Origin: a virus
Strand: one strand, 5' to 3'
Virus record (IMG/VR): IMGVR_UViG_3300023296_000646
Coordinates: 30,981 to 94,980 of that record
Length of the DNA stretch: 64,000 bases
How positions within the stretch are numbered: the stretch's first letter is position 1; each line of letters begins with the position of its first letter. A program made the position numbers and the translations under genes. Positions 7,192-58,784 of the stretch are shown here, one piece after another. The notes beneath the pieces were generated by a model that was not told the origin of the DNA, searched no databases, and saw only the letters and a list, made by a program, of their open reading frames with translations.

Positions 7192-7232
7192 TTTATGTAC
7201 TCTCGTTTCTCATATAAATATACGTGTAACTA

Positions 7233-21840: not shown

Positions 21841-21869
21841 ATTGTTCTCCTATTTCTTATAAATATACG

Positions 21870-24641: not shown

Positions 24642-24706
24642 ATGTGTTGCTCTAATTTATTTGCTCTACTATCTGTGTATAAGTATGTCTTTATCTTCGT
24701 TTTTTA

Positions 24707-27700
24707 TTATTCTACATTTAAAATAGGTTCATCATTGCTCCTATCGCTTTTATTAACTTTAATGGTTCCTACATTTGAAATAAATACTTCAATAGGTGGT
24801 GCACCATCAATTGTAGTTTCTTCCGTCAAATCTACTCCTTTATAAAACGAATTTCTAAGACCAGTAGATATATTTTGAGTTTTGGATGTATGAAACGGTA
24901 AATGTCCATGAACCTTAGTTCCTCCTGCTGTAAATGAAGCAGATGAATGGAGTACGTTTAAATGCTGAATAGATTCTGTTACTATTACATTGTGGTAAGC
25001 ACCTTCTTGACTATCAGTATTTCCGTCTATTAATTGACTTACTGTTTTGTAGCTATCAATATCTATAAGTTCCAGTTTAACTCTCTTTCTACCTTCTACT
25101 CCATCCTTAAGATAAATAATTTCAGCATCACCCTCAATTGCATAAATTCCAAATATACTTTGAGGCATTCCAAATGATGTGTAGTTATAGCTAGCAGATG
25201 CAAAATTTGGCCCGCTGTGATTAGGTACTTTGTAATTTTCATAGTATCCAACCATTATTGCCTTAGATTCTTGGTTAAAATCAATTGCAGTAGATCCAGA
25301 TAAAATTGAACCAACATCTCCATCGTATGTAGTATGATCTCCTGTCATAAAAATAGATTCTGTTGTAAATACAGATCCAGAATATGAAGTTTGATCTCCT
25401 GTCATTAAAATAGATTCTGTTACGAATAATGTTGTACTGTATGATGTTACTATACCTGACGCCATTGATCCAGTATCTATTGCGTTAATTGTACCTTCTG
25501 CAGAATATTCTAATAGAGATGGCTTTTTGAACGCTATCTTATTTCTTTCCAACATGTGAGGTTCAAAAAGAATACCCTTGGATAGTTTAGCTCTAATAGG
25601 AGTCATATCTTCTACATACTCAAAAACTGTTTTATCAAATTGACGAATTAGAGTGATATAATCATATATGTTCATTGAAGATGAATTTCTTTCCCAATAA
25701 TGCTCATTGATTGCAGATAGATCTGCATATGAAGAAGAATATCTTGCATCTGGGTCACCAATTTCATTCATGAAATCATGTCCACCAAACGCTCTAATCA
25801 TATCTCTATTTATTTCAGTAGTTGGTGAAAAGAATACTCCTAATCTATTTGAATCAATAGGAGATTGATCAAATGATTTTTTAGTAATTCTACTGTTGCG
25901 TTCTAGTTGCTTACCATCTAAGAATGATTGAGATTCAAATCGTATTTTATCTGATTCATATCTAAATCCAAGTGTTGGCACTTCAAACGAAGAATCTTGT
26001 TCTATTCTAGTAAATTGAAATGGATCGCTTACAACCGTTGTAAAGTTTGATGCGGTAGCATGTGATACACCATATCCATTAGATCCAGTATACGCAAAGT
26101 TTGGAAGTAAAGTTGAAGTTGCTAAGTTTTGTGGTCTATCAAACGTTAATCTGACCAGTAAATCTTGTACTGACGAAGTATAGTTGTTACCCCTAATAGA
26201 TTCATGCCATCTGACATGGTGATCAAATGATGTTTCAGTAAGAGGAACTTTCCATACGCTGAATTCGTCAACCGATCCACTAAATTCGTTTCCTATAATA
26301 ATGTCAGTAACATCTTCCCAAGAAGAGGTAGCAACGTTTACAGATGCAGAAGATGCATGAGTAATTTTTGTGTATAAACTTTTCTTAACGTAAAGATCAA
26401 AATTATCTGTAACAGATCCGCTAGTTCTAGTTACCATCATTGTAAATGAATCTCCGTCAAATAGTGGAAGTTTAGATGATGAAATTTGACTAATACCAGT
26501 AGATGAAGATATAGCCAATCTCACTCTACCGTTATATGATGATGAAGGTTCAGAATCGATAAATACGTTAATTGTGTCAGTAGAACCTGATTTTCCAGTT
26601 AATAGATTCCATGATCCGGATATTGCAGGAGAATTAAACTCTGGAATATTTGTTGTTCTAAAACTAATTTCAAGTGAATCTGGCTTCCTAGACAAATCAG
26701 AGTCTACCCAATCTATTTCTATCTGTTCAGAGCCAGACAATTTCAGTTCTGCAATTGGATCATCAAATGTATAATAGATGTTCTTACGAGTCATCAGGGT
26801 AGGCCCACCAAACTCTCGTATTTGAACAAACCCGTCAGGAATACCATAAATATGGAATATAGCCCTAATTGATGCTCTAGTTCCCTTTGTCTTTAGTAAG
26901 AACGGAAGATTATTTAAGAATCTTCTAAGAAGAAGTTCTTCTCTCTTTTTAGCAGTAGATGATGATAAGTTAGATCCATCTAGGTTTTTACCTAGTATAT
27001 AATCCGTTAATTCCCTATCTGATCCAGATGTTCTAATTTGCCATCCAAACGCTTCAAGTACAGGCTTTAAAAGTTCGGTAGGAGTTCCACTTCCAGATGT
27101 ATGTGTTCTCACATATACATTGCTCATGGAATCGATGTGAGATTTTATGATATCAAAATGTTGCCCTAGCATTGTTGTAAACAATACAAAATCTACGTTA
27201 GCCGAATCTCGTATAATGTGCTCTGGCAATAAATTGGCCAAACTATCAAAATTGCTATCGTCATATGTTTGAGCAATTGTAGATTGACTTGCAAAATATG
27301 CTATTGAATTAGAACCAGAAGTATGAATAACTGATCCATTAGATTTTGGCCAAGAACTATTGCCCTCGTCAAGGTATAAGAAATTTTCATAACCGTCGAA
27401 ACTTGTTTTAATTCTATTTATGTTAGAGCTCAGCTTTCCTAATTCTCTATTTACTAATATACTTCCTGTAACTGCTCCACCATCATTGATATTATTTATC
27501 TTTAGCTGATCTGCTTCTATTAACTGAAGTTTGTATTTGAAATTAGTTAATCTTTCGTCAGCTGAACTATAAAATACGAAATTACTAAACGATGTGTAAT
27601 CAATATCTAGATTGGCATCTGTAATGAAATTACTTCCACCTAATACAGAATTCATAATGTCAGTAGTTGCCGAACCTGAAGAAATATATCCATATCCGGT

Positions 27701-37581: not shown

Positions 37582-37627
37582 TTTGCTTTATACCATATTT
37601 CAGTTCTTCTATAAATATACTAGGCAT

Positions 37628-38943: not shown

Positions 38944-38974
38944 ATTGTACGGTAAGTTAAAAAATAATTAATCG

Positions 38975-39336
38975 TGGAGATGCCGGGAGTCGAACCCGGG
39001 TGTTACATTGTTTCAATACAAAGTCGTTCACGTGTGTAGGTAATTTCTTTCCAATTTCCAAAGTCACATTGAATTTTGCGTTATGCAATGTTTAACGAAA
39101 CAAGTTTTTCAGTTCTACATATTTCTTAGAACATGGTTTGTAAAAGTCTTTGATTAAGACCCCAAGTTAGCTTACGCTAATACTTCTTCTACAGGAGTCC
39201 CAACGAGTGCCATGGCATCTTCGAAGGTAAAGTCAGAAAGTGATTCTGCATTTATTTGTTTTTTGATGTTTAAGACCTTTCTAGTCTACACGCACTTCAT
39301 ACCGCTCCAACATAGTCGAATACCAAGTACATCCCC
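38975..39336 (-). ncRNA. ssrA: tmRNA
   Basis: 5' GGGGATG...TTCGAC and 3' CCGGGTTCGACTCCCGG-CATCTCC-A; acceptor stem with G3:U wobble; ATAAAT-GCA resume context; tag ORF 39249-39172; late motif at 39346. Confidence 0.92.
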
Positions 39337-39363
39337 ATATTGTTATATAAATATACTCATAAC

Positions 39364-46535: not shown

Positions 46536-46559
46536 GGCAGGGAACTATAGTTCCCTGCC
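46536..46559 (-). terminator. Perfect hairpin, probable terminator after the 320-aa gene
   Basis: GGCAGGGAAC-TATA-GTTCCCTGCC followed by TTTGT on the minus strand. Confidence 0.75.
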
Positions 46560-46579: not shown

Positions 46580-47542
46580 TTAAATCTGTCCACCACAAGT
46601 TGCACAAAACTTCCAGTTTCGCTTTGCTCGTGTTCCGCAGTTAGTACAATATGATCTAACATCCGAATTGCTGTACGACTCTCGTGTTGATTCAGGTTTA
46701 ATGTTTAAATTGATTTCATACGAATGTAAAAGATCAAAATGAACATCAACTGAATCTAAACGTTGATCGCTAGATTCTCCTTTTGCAATTCTGCCAGTTT
46801 CAACCTTATTGAGATCTCGTACTGGCATATAATAATCTTCATTTAGATCAAATGAATCCGTTGTTGTAGTTGTCATTACTACGTTATCTGCATTGTATGC
46901 ATCTGTAGTTGTGAAATTAACTGCGTCTCCAGATGTTGAATCTATTGTAAGAGAACCGTGTGCCGTCGACCCAGCGTCAGTAATGTTAGAATTATCTAAC
47001 AATAGCGAAGTACCTGTGCTAGACACATTAAGAGTTGAACTAGGAGTTGATGTTCCTATTCCAACTGTTGCGTTACTATACATAATACTAGCAGATCCTG
47101 AAACATTCATTGATCCGGTAATTCCAGGGGCACTAATATTAAGCGGAAATGTTCCTGTGCTAGAAAACGACCAGTCAACTGGATCTATTTGTTGATTTAT
47201 TGTTACTTGTTTTTCTTTGTAGAATTTAACAAATACGTTTCCGTTATTCTTAATTGCCTCTTGAACTTGTTCATCATCACCATCTACTTCATATGTTTCA
47301 AATAAAAACTTTACTTGATCATCGATGTAGCGATCTAAGAAAACTCGTTCTCCAGGTTTAAGTACCAACTTAGATGTCGATATTGGAGATCCATTTAATT
47401 CAAGTATAACACCGAATGTGTCTTGTTCTCCGTTGAACAACTCTACTTGAAAGTTTGATTCATCTTTTAGATAAACCGTATTGCCATGGTATTCCTTTAG
47501 TCTACCTTTATTTAGGGCAATATGAGCTTCTAATTTACTCAT
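46580..47542 (-). CDS. Protein with beta-sandwich-like N-domain, S/T-rich linker and C-terminal zinc ribbon
   Basis: FQVELFN...LVLKPGERVFLDRYID...VETGRIAKGESSDQ...YCTNCG...FCATCG. Confidence 0.7.
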   Translation of the reverse strand: MSKLEAHIALNKGRLKEYHGNTVYLKDESNFQVELFNGEQDTFGVILELNGSPISTSKLVLKPGERVFLDRYIDDQVKFLFETYEVDGDDEQVQEAIKNNGNVFVKFYKEKQVTINQQIDPVDWSFSSTGTFPLNISAPGITGSMNVSGSASIMYSNATVGIGTSTPSSTLNVSSTGTSLLLDNSNITDAGSTAHGSLTIDSTSGDAVNFTTTDAYNADNVVMTTTTTDSFDLNEDYYMPVRDLNKVETGRIAKGESSDQRLDSVDVHFDLLHSYEINLNIKPESTRESYSNSDVRSYCTNCGTRAKRNWKFCATCGGQI

Positions 47543-47566
47543 TGTTTTTCCTCATTTTATGTTTTT

Positions 47567-47640
47567 GTCCACACATCGTTTTATGACCTTAAATCATTCT
47601 AAAGCTCAGAAATTCTGAACTCACGACCAATGAACGCGAG
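47567..47640 (-). ncRNA. Candidate structured cis-regulatory leader RNA, copy 1 (three-way junction)
   Basis: CTCGC-[GTTCATTGGTCGT]-GA-[GTTCAGA att TCTGAGC]-TTTAGA-[ATGATT taa GGTCAT]-AAA-[ACGATGTGTGGAC]; lies between promoter motif 47646 and SD/ATG 47542. Confidence 0.7.
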
Positions 47641-47655
47641 ATGTATATAAGTATA

Positions 47656-47928
47656 TTAGACGTTTACCTTTTCGATGTTTGCTTCATATAATTCTTGACG
47701 TTTTGCCCATTCCTTTCTACGTTCAATCACCTTAGGTGAAATCGTATAGTAGTAATGGTAACATCTGTTGATCCAATCTATATGGTGTTGTTTTGCTGTA
47801 CCAGTTAGCAATTGAGTTTCAATCTGAGAGATATGGTGCAATTTGTATCGTGTGATTTTAACATTACCCCAAACTTCATCACCACCATTTCTATACCACG
47901 CTCTTACTGCATCTATTTTATTTTTCAT
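47656..47928 (-). CDS. Hypothetical protein (90 aa), translationally coupled to the Pth2 stop
   Basis: ORF track; ATGA overlap at 47925-47928. Confidence 0.6.
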   Translation of the reverse strand: MKNKIDAVRAWYRNGGDEVWGNVKITRYKLHHISQIETQLLTGTAKQHHIDWINRCYHYYYTISPKVIERRKEWAKRQELYEANIEKVNV

Positions 47929-48281
47929 TTTGTGTACCTGTCATTTTGATTACCGTTTTTTAATGTGAGAGGAAGGTTCGATGTGTATTTATCGATACCT
48001 TCCCCAATTGCTGCTACAGAACATAATTCACCATCTAAATCTGGCTCATAAAATCCAGTGACTGATATGTCATCGTCTTCACATAACTGTCTTAGTAGTT
48101 TATCTAACCTTATTTCATTTCGTGCGCTTAAACATACTATCGTATTGTTCTTCCACGTATTAAATAAAAATGGATATCGAATAGCGAACTCTGCAACTCC
48201 GTGTGCAGTTTGTGCTACCTGATATCCATCTGGCAAATCTCTTCTAGTAATTACGTAAAATCTTTCTTGTGTCTATGTCAT
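47925..48281 (-). CDS. Peptidyl-tRNA hydrolase, Pth2/PTRHD1-like, with in-frame TAG at codon 3
   Basis: SD AGGA, then ATG ACA TAG ACA CAA GAA AGA TTT TAC GTA ATT ACT AGA AGA GAT TTG = MT*TQERFYVITRRDLPDGYQVAQTAH...IVCL...FYEPDLDGELCSVA...SNLPL. The family's first strand (YVITRRDL) lies upstream of the track's TTG start at 48236. Confidence 0.85.
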
Positions 48282-48298
48282 TGTATTATTCCTATTGC

Positions 48299-48433
48299 TT
48301 ATAAAATTAGAACTATAAATATTATAGTACCTATTGCTATGCATGAATTGTAAATCCATTTTCTAAGATTTCCAGTTTCTAGATCTAAAAAGATCCAGTA
48401 TCCTAGCTATCCTAATTCTTCTTTACTTTTCAT
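48299..48433 (-). CDS. Possible 44-aa membrane peptide with in-frame TAG at codon 9
   Basis: MKSKEELG*LGYWIFLDLETGNLRKWIYNSCIAIGTIIFIVLIL; ATG is 5 nt after the tRNA 3' end. Confidence 0.4.
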
Positions 48434-48437
48434 ATCG

Positions 48438-48508
48438 TGCTCGTACAGAGACTTGAACTCTGATCCAACGCTTTAGAGGCGCATGCTCTACCATTGAGCT
48501 ATACGAGC
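48438..48508 (-). tRNA. tRNA with CUA anticodon (amber suppressor); CCA not encoded
   Basis: GCTCGTA TA GCTC AATGGTA GAGC A TGCGC CTCTAAA GCGTT GGAT CAGAG TTCAAGT CTCTG TACGAGC A: complete cloverleaf, loop C-U-CUA-A-A. Confidence 0.9.
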
Positions 48509-48509
48509 T

Positions 48510-48560
48510 TATAGATACGTAGTACTATTAAACGATTTAATTGTTTAATACGTATCTATA
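48510..48560. other. Long hairpin immediately 5' of the tRNA
   Basis: TATAGATACGTA...TACGTATCTATA (12-bp perfect arms) with inner TATTAAACGATT/AATTGTTTAATA pairing. Confidence 0.7.
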
Positions 48561-48575
48561 TTTGCTAATCAAATA

Positions 48576-49175
48576 TTAAACTTGATCTGCATTTTCTGTT
48601 CTATAGGAAGTTGAACGTGTGCTCATTGAACTGTAGTTTAAAGTAGTACCATCAAATGTTGATGCGAATGAAACTGAATCTGCTTTAGATAACCCATAAT
48701 TGGCTCCACCTTGGGCAAATCCGTCAATTCCTGTGCCAGCAAACATAAATTCCCAACCTAGAGTTTGTTTACCCTGAATTAGTTCTTTAGCTTGATTGGT
48801 GTTGTACTCTCTACTTGAATTTTCTTGACCATCCGTATTAATAAATACCATTGCTCTTCCATCACTATATCTTAATAGTGTTTCTCCAATTGCATCATTC
48901 AATGCAGTACCATATCCACCACAACTATATTCATTTCCAGTTAAAACCGGCGTATCTTGAATATCAATTCTATTGTGAAGTGTTGTAACTTTGTTGTTGA
49001 ACATTATTGTACTTAATATTGCTTCTCCCTTTACTAGCTTTTGTTCCTGAATGAATTCGTTGAAACCACTAATAACACTATCTGTCAGATGCGACATTGA
49101 TGGTGATTGATCCAATATACAAATGATATGTACTGGGCCTTCCTTATTTGCTACTACCTTTTTTGCATTAGCCAT
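48576..49175 (-). CDS. Stand-alone von Willebrand factor A (VWA) domain protein
   Basis: MIDAS motif ILDQSPSM...GGYGTALNDAIG...FINTDGQENSSREY...GWEFMFAG. Confidence 0.9.
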   Translation of the reverse strand: MANAKKVVANKEGPVHIICILDQSPSMSHLTDSVISGFNEFIQEQKLVKGEAILSTIMFNNKVTTLHNRIDIQDTPVLTGNEYSCGGYGTALNDAIGETLLRYSDGRAMVFINTDGQENSSREYNTNQAKELIQGKQTLGWEFMFAGTGIDGFAQGGANYGLSKADSVSFASTFDGTTLNYSSMSTRSTSYRTENADQV

Positions 49176-49200
49176 TGTTTTCTCCTTTCTTTAATTGAAT

Positions 49201-49276
49201 ATCCACCAATCATTTTGTGACCTATCTTTTTATGATCACTCTAAAGTCTTAAAGACTCATAACCAATAGATGCGAG
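49201..49276 (-). ncRNA. Candidate structured cis-regulatory leader RNA, copy 2
   Basis: CTCGC-[ATCTATTGGTTAT]-GA-[GTCT tta AGAC]-TTTAGA-[GTGATC ataaaaagata GGTCAC]-AAA-[ATGATTGGTGGAT]; lies between promoter motif 49282 and SD AAGGAG/ATG 49175. Confidence 0.7.
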
Positions 49277-49304
49277 TTATATATAAGTATATCAAACTTA
49301 GTGT

Positions 49305-58320: not shown

Positions 58321-58784
58321 TTGTTTAATATTTTTTTAGTTAATATTTTATTGATTTCGTCTACTGACCAACCTTTGAGATATGGATAATATTTCTGCAT
58401 TCCTCTTGCTTCTCTGAAAATCCAATATTCCATCGTGTATTTTGTTTCATTTCCATTTTCAGTAAGATGATTAAGGTATGCTCTACCTTCCACTGCATGA
58501 CTCCATATTTCAATGTGGGCTCTTAAAATCGGTAGCTGACATATTACTGCAGGAAGAATTCCAAATAAGATTAAAAGTGTCCACAACCAATACTCTGCCT
58601 TCTCTTGTTCCATGGTCCATGATGGAGTGTTATCATCATATACTATTCCATAAAATGGGTAATTGCTAGCTTTTCTTTTTCCACGACCTGTAGGTTGTAT
58701 GTCGCCTTCTACTTTATGTAGTAAAAATTTTGGTATCCAAATCATATTTATGCTCACGTTTGTTACATATAAATATAATTGCAA
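58317..58784 (-). CDS. Hypothetical protein
   Basis: ORF track. Confidence 0.55.
   Translation of the reverse strand: MQLYLYVTNVSINMIWIPKFLLHKVEGDIQPTGRGKRKASNYPFYGIVYDDNTPSWTMEQEKAEYWLWTLLILFGILPAVICQLPILRAHIEIWSHAVEGRAYLNHLTENGNETKYTMEYWIFREARGMQKYYPYLKGWSVDEINKILTKKILNK

Follow-up and report, generated by a model that had tools for sequence, protein, structure and literature searches.

Two paralogous copies of a predicted three-way-junction mRNA leader in a distantly T4-like phage

Described systems and the layout of the leader module

The T4 gene 32 operator is a pseudoknot that controls its own gene product, and its arrangement lets protein nucleated at the fold occlude initiation. HK022 put is a promoter-proximal two-stem RNA that makes RNA polymerase resistant to terminators, and T-box leaders have a stem I with a specifier loop and a distal platform, together with a conserved T-box sequence in an antiterminator or anti-sequestrator. 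Here we describe an undescribed, lineage-restricted structured mRNA leader that is present in two copies, A and B, in a 64,000-nt window of a phage genome (positions 30,981-94,980 of the IMG/VR record IMGVR_UViG_3300023296_000646; all coordinates below are positions in this window). The leader is known in kind and new as a family, and it is an orphan at present.

The same module occupies two minus-strand intergenic gaps, at 47655-47543 (113 nt, copy A) and 49304-49176 (129 nt, copy B). In the direction of the mRNA it consists of the block ATATACTTATATA, five poorly conserved bases, CUCGC, the 13-position helix P1, GA, the P2 hairpin, UUUAGA, the P3 hairpin, AAA, the returning strand of P1 (P1'), a linker and ATG. 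Each copy starts 5 nt past the promoter-like motif ATACTTATA, which agrees with the approximate distance (about 5 nt) given in an earlier, sequence-only reading of this DNA. P1' is separated from the ATG by 24 nt in copy A and 25 nt in copy B, a correction of that reading, which had put the ribosome site itself about 25 nt past the fold. The distance from P1' to the GAGG (copy A) or AGGAG (copy B) of the ribosome site is about 13-14 nt. As judged from their sequences, the two stretches are paralogous copies of one putative promoter, leader and ribosome-site module of ~125 nt, of which the middle 74-76 nt are predicted to fold.

The promoter-early stem-loop (PeSL) cassettes of T4-type phages (Arbiol et al. 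2010, PMC2839356) combine a sigma-70-type early promoter with a simple G/C-rich terminator stem-loop that lies within the promoter or next to it; a genome carries about 50 of them, and they stand in hyperplastic regions (PMC2839356). Like a PeSL, the module described here is a repeated, compact series of stop, promoter, structure, Shine-Dalgarno sequence (SD) and start that stands before unrelated accessory genes and brackets a small block. Unlike a PeSL, it has the motif ATAYTTATA, a transcribed three-way junction with invariant junction strands, no U run, and only two copies. We rejected membership in this class, as neither copy has a sigma-70-type site and the structure lies downstream of the promoter-like motif and is not a terminator.

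With the T4 gene 32 operator the leader shares a folded 5' element that is followed by an unstructured A/U-rich stretch holding the ribosome site, and it differs from that operator in being a three-way junction placed before two unrelated genes. It resembles the purine, thiamine pyrophosphate and similar junction riboswitches in its size of about 75 nt, its three helices, invariant junction, covarying stems and variable peripheral hairpins, and its 5'-leader position. Unlike these riboswitches, it has no Rfam riboswitch match, expression platform, conserved loop-loop contact, phylogenetic spread or ligand-indicating context. HK022 put is similar to the leaders in position alone. A T-box assignment was rejected, since no T-box model matched and the leader is only 74-76 nt long with no switchable helix; the one point of comparison is that a UAG-containing junction strand complements the anticodon loop of a nearby tRNA(CUA).

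The consensus of the type III hammerhead ribozyme is CUGAUGA (CUGANGA) ... GAA, with a single H17 next to A15.1-U16.1. The helix order and the lengths of the junction strands of the leader are similar to this design, and 9 of 13 core positions coincide. We nonetheless rejected this assignment, because the leader reads CUUUAGA ... AAA with GA in place of H17, G5, A6 and G12 are absent, and no hammerhead model matched. In the k-junction, the bulged strand runs from the C helix through a loop and G1b A2b into the NC helix, and the non-bulged strand runs from the NC helix through G2n A1n, a connector and the third helix directly into the C helix (PMC10573300). If P2 is taken as the C helix and P3 as the NC helix, the bulged strand fits (UUUA as the loop, followed by GA), but the AAA after P3 lacks G2n and two extra bases (GA) stand between P1 and P2. 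The other helix mapping has no loop plus GA, and the k-junction was rejected as well.

Folding and covariation of the two copies

When folded alone, each copy adopted the same three-way junction as both its minimum free energy (MFE) and its centroid structure, at -20.1 kcal/mol (z -2.25) for copy A and -17.5 kcal/mol (z -2.0) for copy B. The shared architecture had been proposed at 47640-47567 and 49276-49201 on the minus strand, and these coordinates proved exact. Extending each sequence across the linker and 30 nt into the gene left the junction fold unchanged in both copies. The antisense strands reached -8.1 and -6.4 kcal/mol with z about 0 and did not form the three-way junction. As the fold is confined to the sense strand and P1 of copy B includes six G.U pairs, we interpret it as an RNA structure and not as a DNA palindrome. 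All pairs of copy B are standard (13, 4 and 6 in P1, P2 and P3). P1 of copy A contains two non-standard positions (U.U and G.G), so the 13-bp P1 that had been claimed for both copies holds in full for copy B (13/13) and at 11 of 13 positions for copy A. In the MFE folds, the two leading U of UUUAGA also pair with GA. Built from copy A alone, a covariance model detected copy B at 46.7 bits (E 8e-11), with no other match in the window.

The pattern of divergence between the copies follows this structure. CUCGC, GA, UUUAGA and AAA are identical at 16 of 16 bases, while the P1 and P3 helices are identical at 26 of 38 (Fisher p 0.011 for junction and tail versus helices). This bears out the earlier statement that the junction strands and the 5' CUCGC stay constant while the helices vary yet pair (0/16 versus 12/38 bases differ). 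Identity in the flanks is 6/20 upstream of the promoter block, 12/30 in the gene starts and about 16/25 in the linker, and the longest run identical in both copies is 13 nt. With the flanks only 30-64% identical, neutral drift between the copies has been high, which argues that the duplication is old and that the identical segments are conserved and not merely young.

All 12 helix changes are compatible with pairing, and copy B has standard pairs at 19/19 positions of P1 and P3. Double compensatory changes affect three pairs in P1 and P3 and six pairs over all three helices. The examples of covariation listed previously were all correct: the outer P1 pair changes from G-C to A-U, P1 pair 12 likewise from G-C to A-U, and the closing pair of P3 from A-U to G-C. 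P2 is a different hairpin in each copy (7 versus 4 bp, also as listed), and the loop of P3 has 3 nt in copy A and 11 nt in copy B. We simulated random change in copy A by drawing 12 substitutions across its P1 and P3 helices according to the observed mix of transitions and transversions (10 of the 12 changes are transitions). Under these conditions 19/19 standard pairs arose in 0.013% of trials (p 1.3e-4) and three double changes in 1.8% (p 0.018). The proportion of paired cells was 96%, compared with 33-46% when the partner columns were slid, and the slid controls contained 0-1 both-side changes. From these data, we consider it likely that the leader is a genuine, selected RNA structure. We do not put this more strongly because it depends on one pairwise comparison, with the structure read from the same two sequences.

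The Rfam 15 models, run over the whole window at gathering thresholds, reported transfer-messenger RNA (tmRNA) and tRNA only. At E up to 10, a search of the 2.2-kb region and of each 96-97-nt element gave only chance rows at 13-16 bits (small nucleolar RNAs, a brome mosaic virus pseudoknot and a histone stem-loop, the last outside the elements), so the earlier view that no described family matches still stands. The hope that a covariance model would uncover more homologues was not borne out, as related loci, records and collections gave only the two known copies. The model built from both copies found just these two in the whole of its own record, which by estimate covers 51% of the phage genome. 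It found nothing credible in 159 loci around homologues of the VWA-type protein encoded behind copy B (viral and metagenome collections), in 32 phage records related through TerL (50-58% identity; one complete 166-kb genome), or in the whole genomes of Lak-A1 and Lak-B4, both with a gene for a homologue of the Zn-ribbon protein found behind copy A, and of Flavobacterium phage immuto. The TerL relatives have neither of the downstream genes, so this blank is uninformative for them. Pattern scans gave a similar picture. CTCGC combined with P1 words returned 11 chance matches, and a 3'-half pattern returned none. The junction pattern returned 91 stretches, mostly one GC-rich 76-nt coding sequence, and none fits the model. 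A pattern of junction plus P3 had no match in viral contigs and four in genomes (two at 13 bits, two without a model match). The promoter motif followed by CUCGC had one chance match in the relatives.

Possible roles of the leader

In the MFE and near-optimal folds, the ribosome-binding region is either unpaired or paired with nothing but coding sequence. Neither copy is followed by a terminator-like site, and there is no recognisable intrinsic terminator between copy B and the tRNA. As the fold leaves the ribosome site free and no terminator is present, a classical riboswitch or attenuator design is not visible; the previous description of the leader as riboswitch-like thus gained no specific support, the downstream proteins indicate no metabolite, and the searches gave no homologue that could point to a ligand. 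Given a closed domain that lies off the ribosome site and the lack of a terminator, we judge recognition by a factor to be the most likely role. In the mechanism that we propose, a segment of 74-76 nt, placed at or very near the start of the transcript, would fold in the mRNA as a compact three-way junction. This fold would be under selection, its helices having drifted by about a third with pairing kept and its peripheral hairpins having been resized. With 11 junction bases and the 5' CUCGC unchanged, it would present a closed domain whose distance from the two start codons is kept at 24/25 nt. The invariant junction would be recognised by a trans-acting factor, most probably a protein of the phage or of its host, which when bound would set the translation or stability of both mRNAs together. 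We favour recognition of the junction by such a factor only tentatively, and with less than even confidence. Co-control of the two genes, which had been suggested before, is a reasonable inference from the shared module. The copies are more aptly viewed as the first and last leaders within the block than as outside flanks, as had been stated.

If the leader is a true regulatory element, it would represent an undescribed RNA family that links two accessory genes framing a translation-related block. This block is unusual in holding an amber-suppressor tRNA and an amber-gated hydrolase-like gene, with a phage tmRNA nearby. The value of the observation is limited by the leader being a two-copy orphan, so that covariation statistics and gene context do not yet narrow the mechanism.

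Several points weigh against recognition by a factor, or against the structure on which it depends. The folding z-scores of about -2 are modest. With only two copies in one phage lineage, the covariation statistics amount to one comparison between two sequences, which also supplied the structure. Searches of related loci and records totalling about 4.7 Mb gave no further copy, and the pattern scans of the collections (viral, plus genomes) gave chance or coding matches only. The 5' end of the transcript is a prediction from the position of the promoter-like motif. No candidate binding protein for the leader emerges; a model of the Zn-ribbon protein compared with the PDB gave nothing better than E 0.06 and no nucleic-acid-binding match. 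Lastly, the invariant junction might also come from tertiary folding alone or from a small-molecule pocket.

Among the alternatives, the leader could act as a passive 5' structure, forming a stable cap-like domain that shields two late mRNAs from 5'-end-dependent decay or keeps upstream sequence from affecting their ribosome sites. This would agree with the predicted 5'-end position, the closed stable domain, the free ribosome site and the lack of a visible expression platform, and it requires no unknown partner. We regard it as unlikely, though as the next most probable role, because a stable helix would suffice for such a role, which leaves unexplained both the 16/16 invariant unpaired bases alongside 32% helix drift and the invariant single-stranded 5-nt tail. 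In enterobacteria, a single-stranded 5' tail would weaken protection from RNase E. If the leader were a riboswitch, the invariant junction would form a pocket for a metabolite, ion or signalling nucleotide. The typical size, the 5'-leader position, the absence from Rfam and the aptamer-like conservation (an invariant junction, covarying helices and variable peripheral hairpins, seen in two paralogues only) all suit this role. We consider it improbable, as there is neither a terminator nor pairing of the ribosome site, the two copies occur in one phage with no homologue in anything searched, the VWA and beta-sandwich/Zn-ribbon genes hint at no ligand, and no loop-loop or pseudoknot contact is conserved between the copies. 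Less probable again is a repeat cassette acting at the level of DNA, in which the direct repeats would mainly serve recombination that moves or deletes the 1.6-kb block, with the RNA fold of secondary importance. Two direct repeats of stop, promoter, structure, SD and ATG do bracket accessory genes in the manner of PeSLs (PMC2839356), and the phage is distantly T4-like. Against this, the leader is a transcribed three-way junction without a U run, present in two copies whose longest identical run is 13 nt, and the compensatory changes and strand asymmetry point to selection on RNA.

Ranking next is processive antitermination of the HK022 put type, in which nascent RNA would bind RNA polymerase and promote read-through of terminators. 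The leader is a promoter-proximal, multi-helix element of about 75 nt that is found at two promoters without an expression platform, and a strong terminator hairpin (46559-46536) directly precedes the ATG (46530) of the next gene. However, its likeness to put is limited to position, the model has no need of the kept ribosome-site spacing, and the stretch from copy B to the tRNA offers no recognisable intrinsic terminator to be read through. It is very unlikely that the leader has no function and is a duplicated intergenic segment whose pairing was kept by chance and by transition/G.U bias. Only two sequences are available, 10/12 helix changes are transitions, which often keep G.U pairing, and z is about -2; yet the simulation with the observed transition/transversion mix still gives p 1.3e-4 for 19/19 pairs, P2 has been rebuilt in place as a different hairpin, and the junction is invariant between flanks that are 30-64% identical. 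We attach a lower probability still to the idea that the leader senses or docks the amber-suppressor tRNA(CUA) that the phage itself encodes, as a minimal tRNA-responsive leader unrelated to T-boxes. The junction strand UUUAGA, extended to UUUAGAG in copy B, includes a UAG and is exactly complementary to positions 33-38 (32-38 for copy B) of the tRNA(CUA) anticodon loop (CUCUAAA). If this idea were true, a kissing contact between the tRNA and the junction would tie expression of the block's first and last genes to the amount of suppressor tRNA available. In shuffled leaders, UUUAGA arises with a probability of about 0.05, and the anticodon complementarity is not statistically significant. The least probable of the roles that we considered is that of a self-cleaving ribozyme, such as a diverged type III hammerhead. 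The strand order is hammerhead-like (an open stem, a hairpin, the 7-nt purine-rich CUUUAGA, a hairpin, AAA and an innermost U-A pair), but G5, A6, G12 and the single H17 are replaced by U, U, A and GA, respectively, and no ribozyme model scores at E 10, even for the 96-nt searches.

Further readings of the leader were rejected. In both copies, CUC and the junction UAG bound a short in-frame open reading frame (ORF), but it has no start codon and its changes are mostly non-synonymous. A mini-ORF that would begin at P3 (AUG/GUG) lacks conserved ends. Pairing of CUCGC with G/A-UGAG would give an alternative hairpin of 5 versus 4 pairs, which offers no covariation for a test. A T-box-like double contact, in which UGGU of P1 would pair with the tRNA ACCA, has a geometry that is implausible in 75 nt.

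Promoter-like motif and neighbouring genes

The word ATACTTATA ahead of both copies is a one-base variant of ATATTTATA, and the two words together (ATAYTTATA) occur 19 times in the 95-kb record. Fourteen of these copies lie in the intergenic 8.9% of the record (binomial p 1.4e-11), 13 of the 14 are ahead of a gene on the same strand, and 8 of those 13 sit 17-36 nt upstream of the start codon. In two related phage records, ATATTTAT ranks with the most enriched gene-upstream words, preceding 31 genes in G001 and 18 in G002. From this distribution, ATAYTTATA is very probably a promoter element of this phage group, and by analogy we infer that it may be a late-type promoter comparable to T4 TATAAATA. 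The leaders behind the motif measure 103 nt for copy A and 106 nt for copy B, compared with 17-36 nt for most others. As the usual leaders are short, the three-way junction is in effect a ~75-nt insertion, and it would be expected at the 5' end of the transcript. By its distance from the motif, transcription would start within a few bases of CUCGC.

Further ATAYTTATA sites, all on the minus strand, include 1757-1765, 7213-7221, 21858-21866, 24678-24686, 37610-37618, 39346-39354 and 58768-58776. A phage tmRNA lies at 38972-39336 on the minus strand (75.5 bits, tag peptide AESLSDFTFEDAMALVGTPVEEVLA), and a copy of ATATTTATA, which a crude gene caller scored as coding, stands 9 nt before its 5' end. 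The word ACGAATACCT is common to two further unusually long leaders, of 80 and 85 nt, that follow the promoter-like motif (G000:C1:14335-14423 and 25740-25833, minus strand, upstream of the window), and the first of them also holds a 12-nt inverted repeat (CATATAAAGGTA / TACCTTTATATA). In G001 and G002, the long leaders that follow this promoter word contain no comparable three-way junction.

Table 1. Positions of the leader copies, their segments and associated features in the window
Feature	Position	Strand	Remarks
Promoter-like motif ATACTTATA, copy B	49282-49290	-	wider identical block is ATATACTTATATA
Copy B, predicted three-way-junction leader, 76 nt	49201-49276	-	MFE and centroid fold; matched by model from copy A alone
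Copy B, tail CUCGC	49276-49272	-	
Copy B, P1 with P1'	49271-49259 with 49213-49201	-	
Copy B, GA	49258-49257	-	
Copy B, P2 hairpin	49256-49246	-	4 bp
Copy B, UUUAGA	49245-49240	-	
Copy B, P3 hairpin	49239-49217	-	6 bp, 11-nt loop
Copy B, AAA	49216-49214	-	
Copy B, A-rich unstructured linker (25 nt, with AGGAG), then ATG of VWA gene	49173-49200	-	high unpaired probability
VWA-type protein (TerY/YegL-like), 199 amino acids, behind copy B	48576-49175	-	homologues with PF00092/PF13519 or named YegL
tRNA, anticodon CUA, between the leaders	48438-48508	-	
Promoter-like motif ATACTTATA, copy A	47646-47654	-	2 nt past the TAA stop (47658-47656) of the upstream 90-amino-acid ORF
Copy A, predicted three-way-junction leader, 74 nt	47567-47640	-	MFE and centroid fold, z -2.25
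Copy A, tail CUCGC	47640-47636	-	
Copy A, P1 with P1'	47635-47623 with 47579-47567	-	11/13 paired
Copy A, GA	47622-47621	-	
Copy A, P2 hairpin	47620-47604	-	7 bp
Copy A, UUUAGA	47603-47598	-	
Copy A, P3 hairpin	47597-47583	-	6 bp, 3-nt loop
Copy A, AAA	47582-47580	-	
Copy A, A-rich unstructured linker (24 nt, with GAGG), then ATG of Zn-ribbon gene	47540-47566	-	
320-amino-acid protein behind copy A	46580-47542	-	beta-sandwich core, disordered serine/threonine-rich insert, C-terminal zinc ribbon
Strong terminator-like hairpin, 10 bp (7 G-C) and U run	46536-46559	-	closes the block after the Zn-ribbon gene

The phage is distantly T4-like: its TerL is 54% identical to that of Flavobacterium phage immuto, the closest cultured relative, and has a gp20-type neighbour. 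Its host group is probably Bacteroidota, in which translation initiation is atypical. All public runs that contain this DNA are salt-lake metagenomes, with no RNA run listed among them, and four DNA runs hold near-identical contigs at depth 2-4, without a joint between the repeats at that depth. At position 47636, one contig of run X4 (depth 3.3) has A for G on the plus strand, which would change CUCGC of copy A to CUCGU and may be a sequencing error.

The genes behind copies A and B are unrelated to each other. The VWA-type protein matches PHROG 7371 (E 2e-45), and its own Pfam matches are below threshold. For the Zn-ribbon protein, the Pfam Zn-ribbon matches fall just below threshold; it has 138 homologues, including full-length ones in Lak megaphages at about 33% identity, and its AlphaFold model shows a confident beta-sandwich interrupted by a disordered insert of ~125 amino acids. 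Each protein has homologues at about 50% identity, among them one encoded on a contig of 9,040 nt and another on a contig of 48,131 nt. Judged by these matching contig sizes, the two probably co-occur in at least two other phages, and this apparent co-occurrence would fit a need for joint expression. The two genes are not neighbours in any locus that was retrieved.

Leader B heads the first gene of the block of VWA gene, tRNA, hydrolase-like gene and 90-amino-acid ORF, and leader A heads the last gene before the terminator-like hairpin. The U run of this hairpin extends into the ATG of the next gene (46530), 5 nt past the stem, so that gene would need read-through or a start inside or just before the hairpin. 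Between the leaders, and on the same strand, are an 11-bp hairpin, the tRNA(CUA), the small hydrolase-like gene and the 90-amino-acid ORF. The hydrolase-like gene (47925-48281, minus strand) lies just downstream of the tRNA and begins ATG ACA TAG. It had been taken for peptidyl-tRNA hydrolase, an identity that we could not support: Pfam PTH2 gives no match even at E 5, and the sole matches are to PHROG 3668 'hydrolase' (1.9e-9) and PHROG 1866, which is of unknown function. The 11-bp hairpin pairs 48559-48549 with 48521-48511 on the minus strand, has extra pairing in its loop and stops 2 nt short of where the tRNA(CUA) begins. With this placement, the hairpin at 48511-48559 looks like a structured precursor leader for the tRNA.

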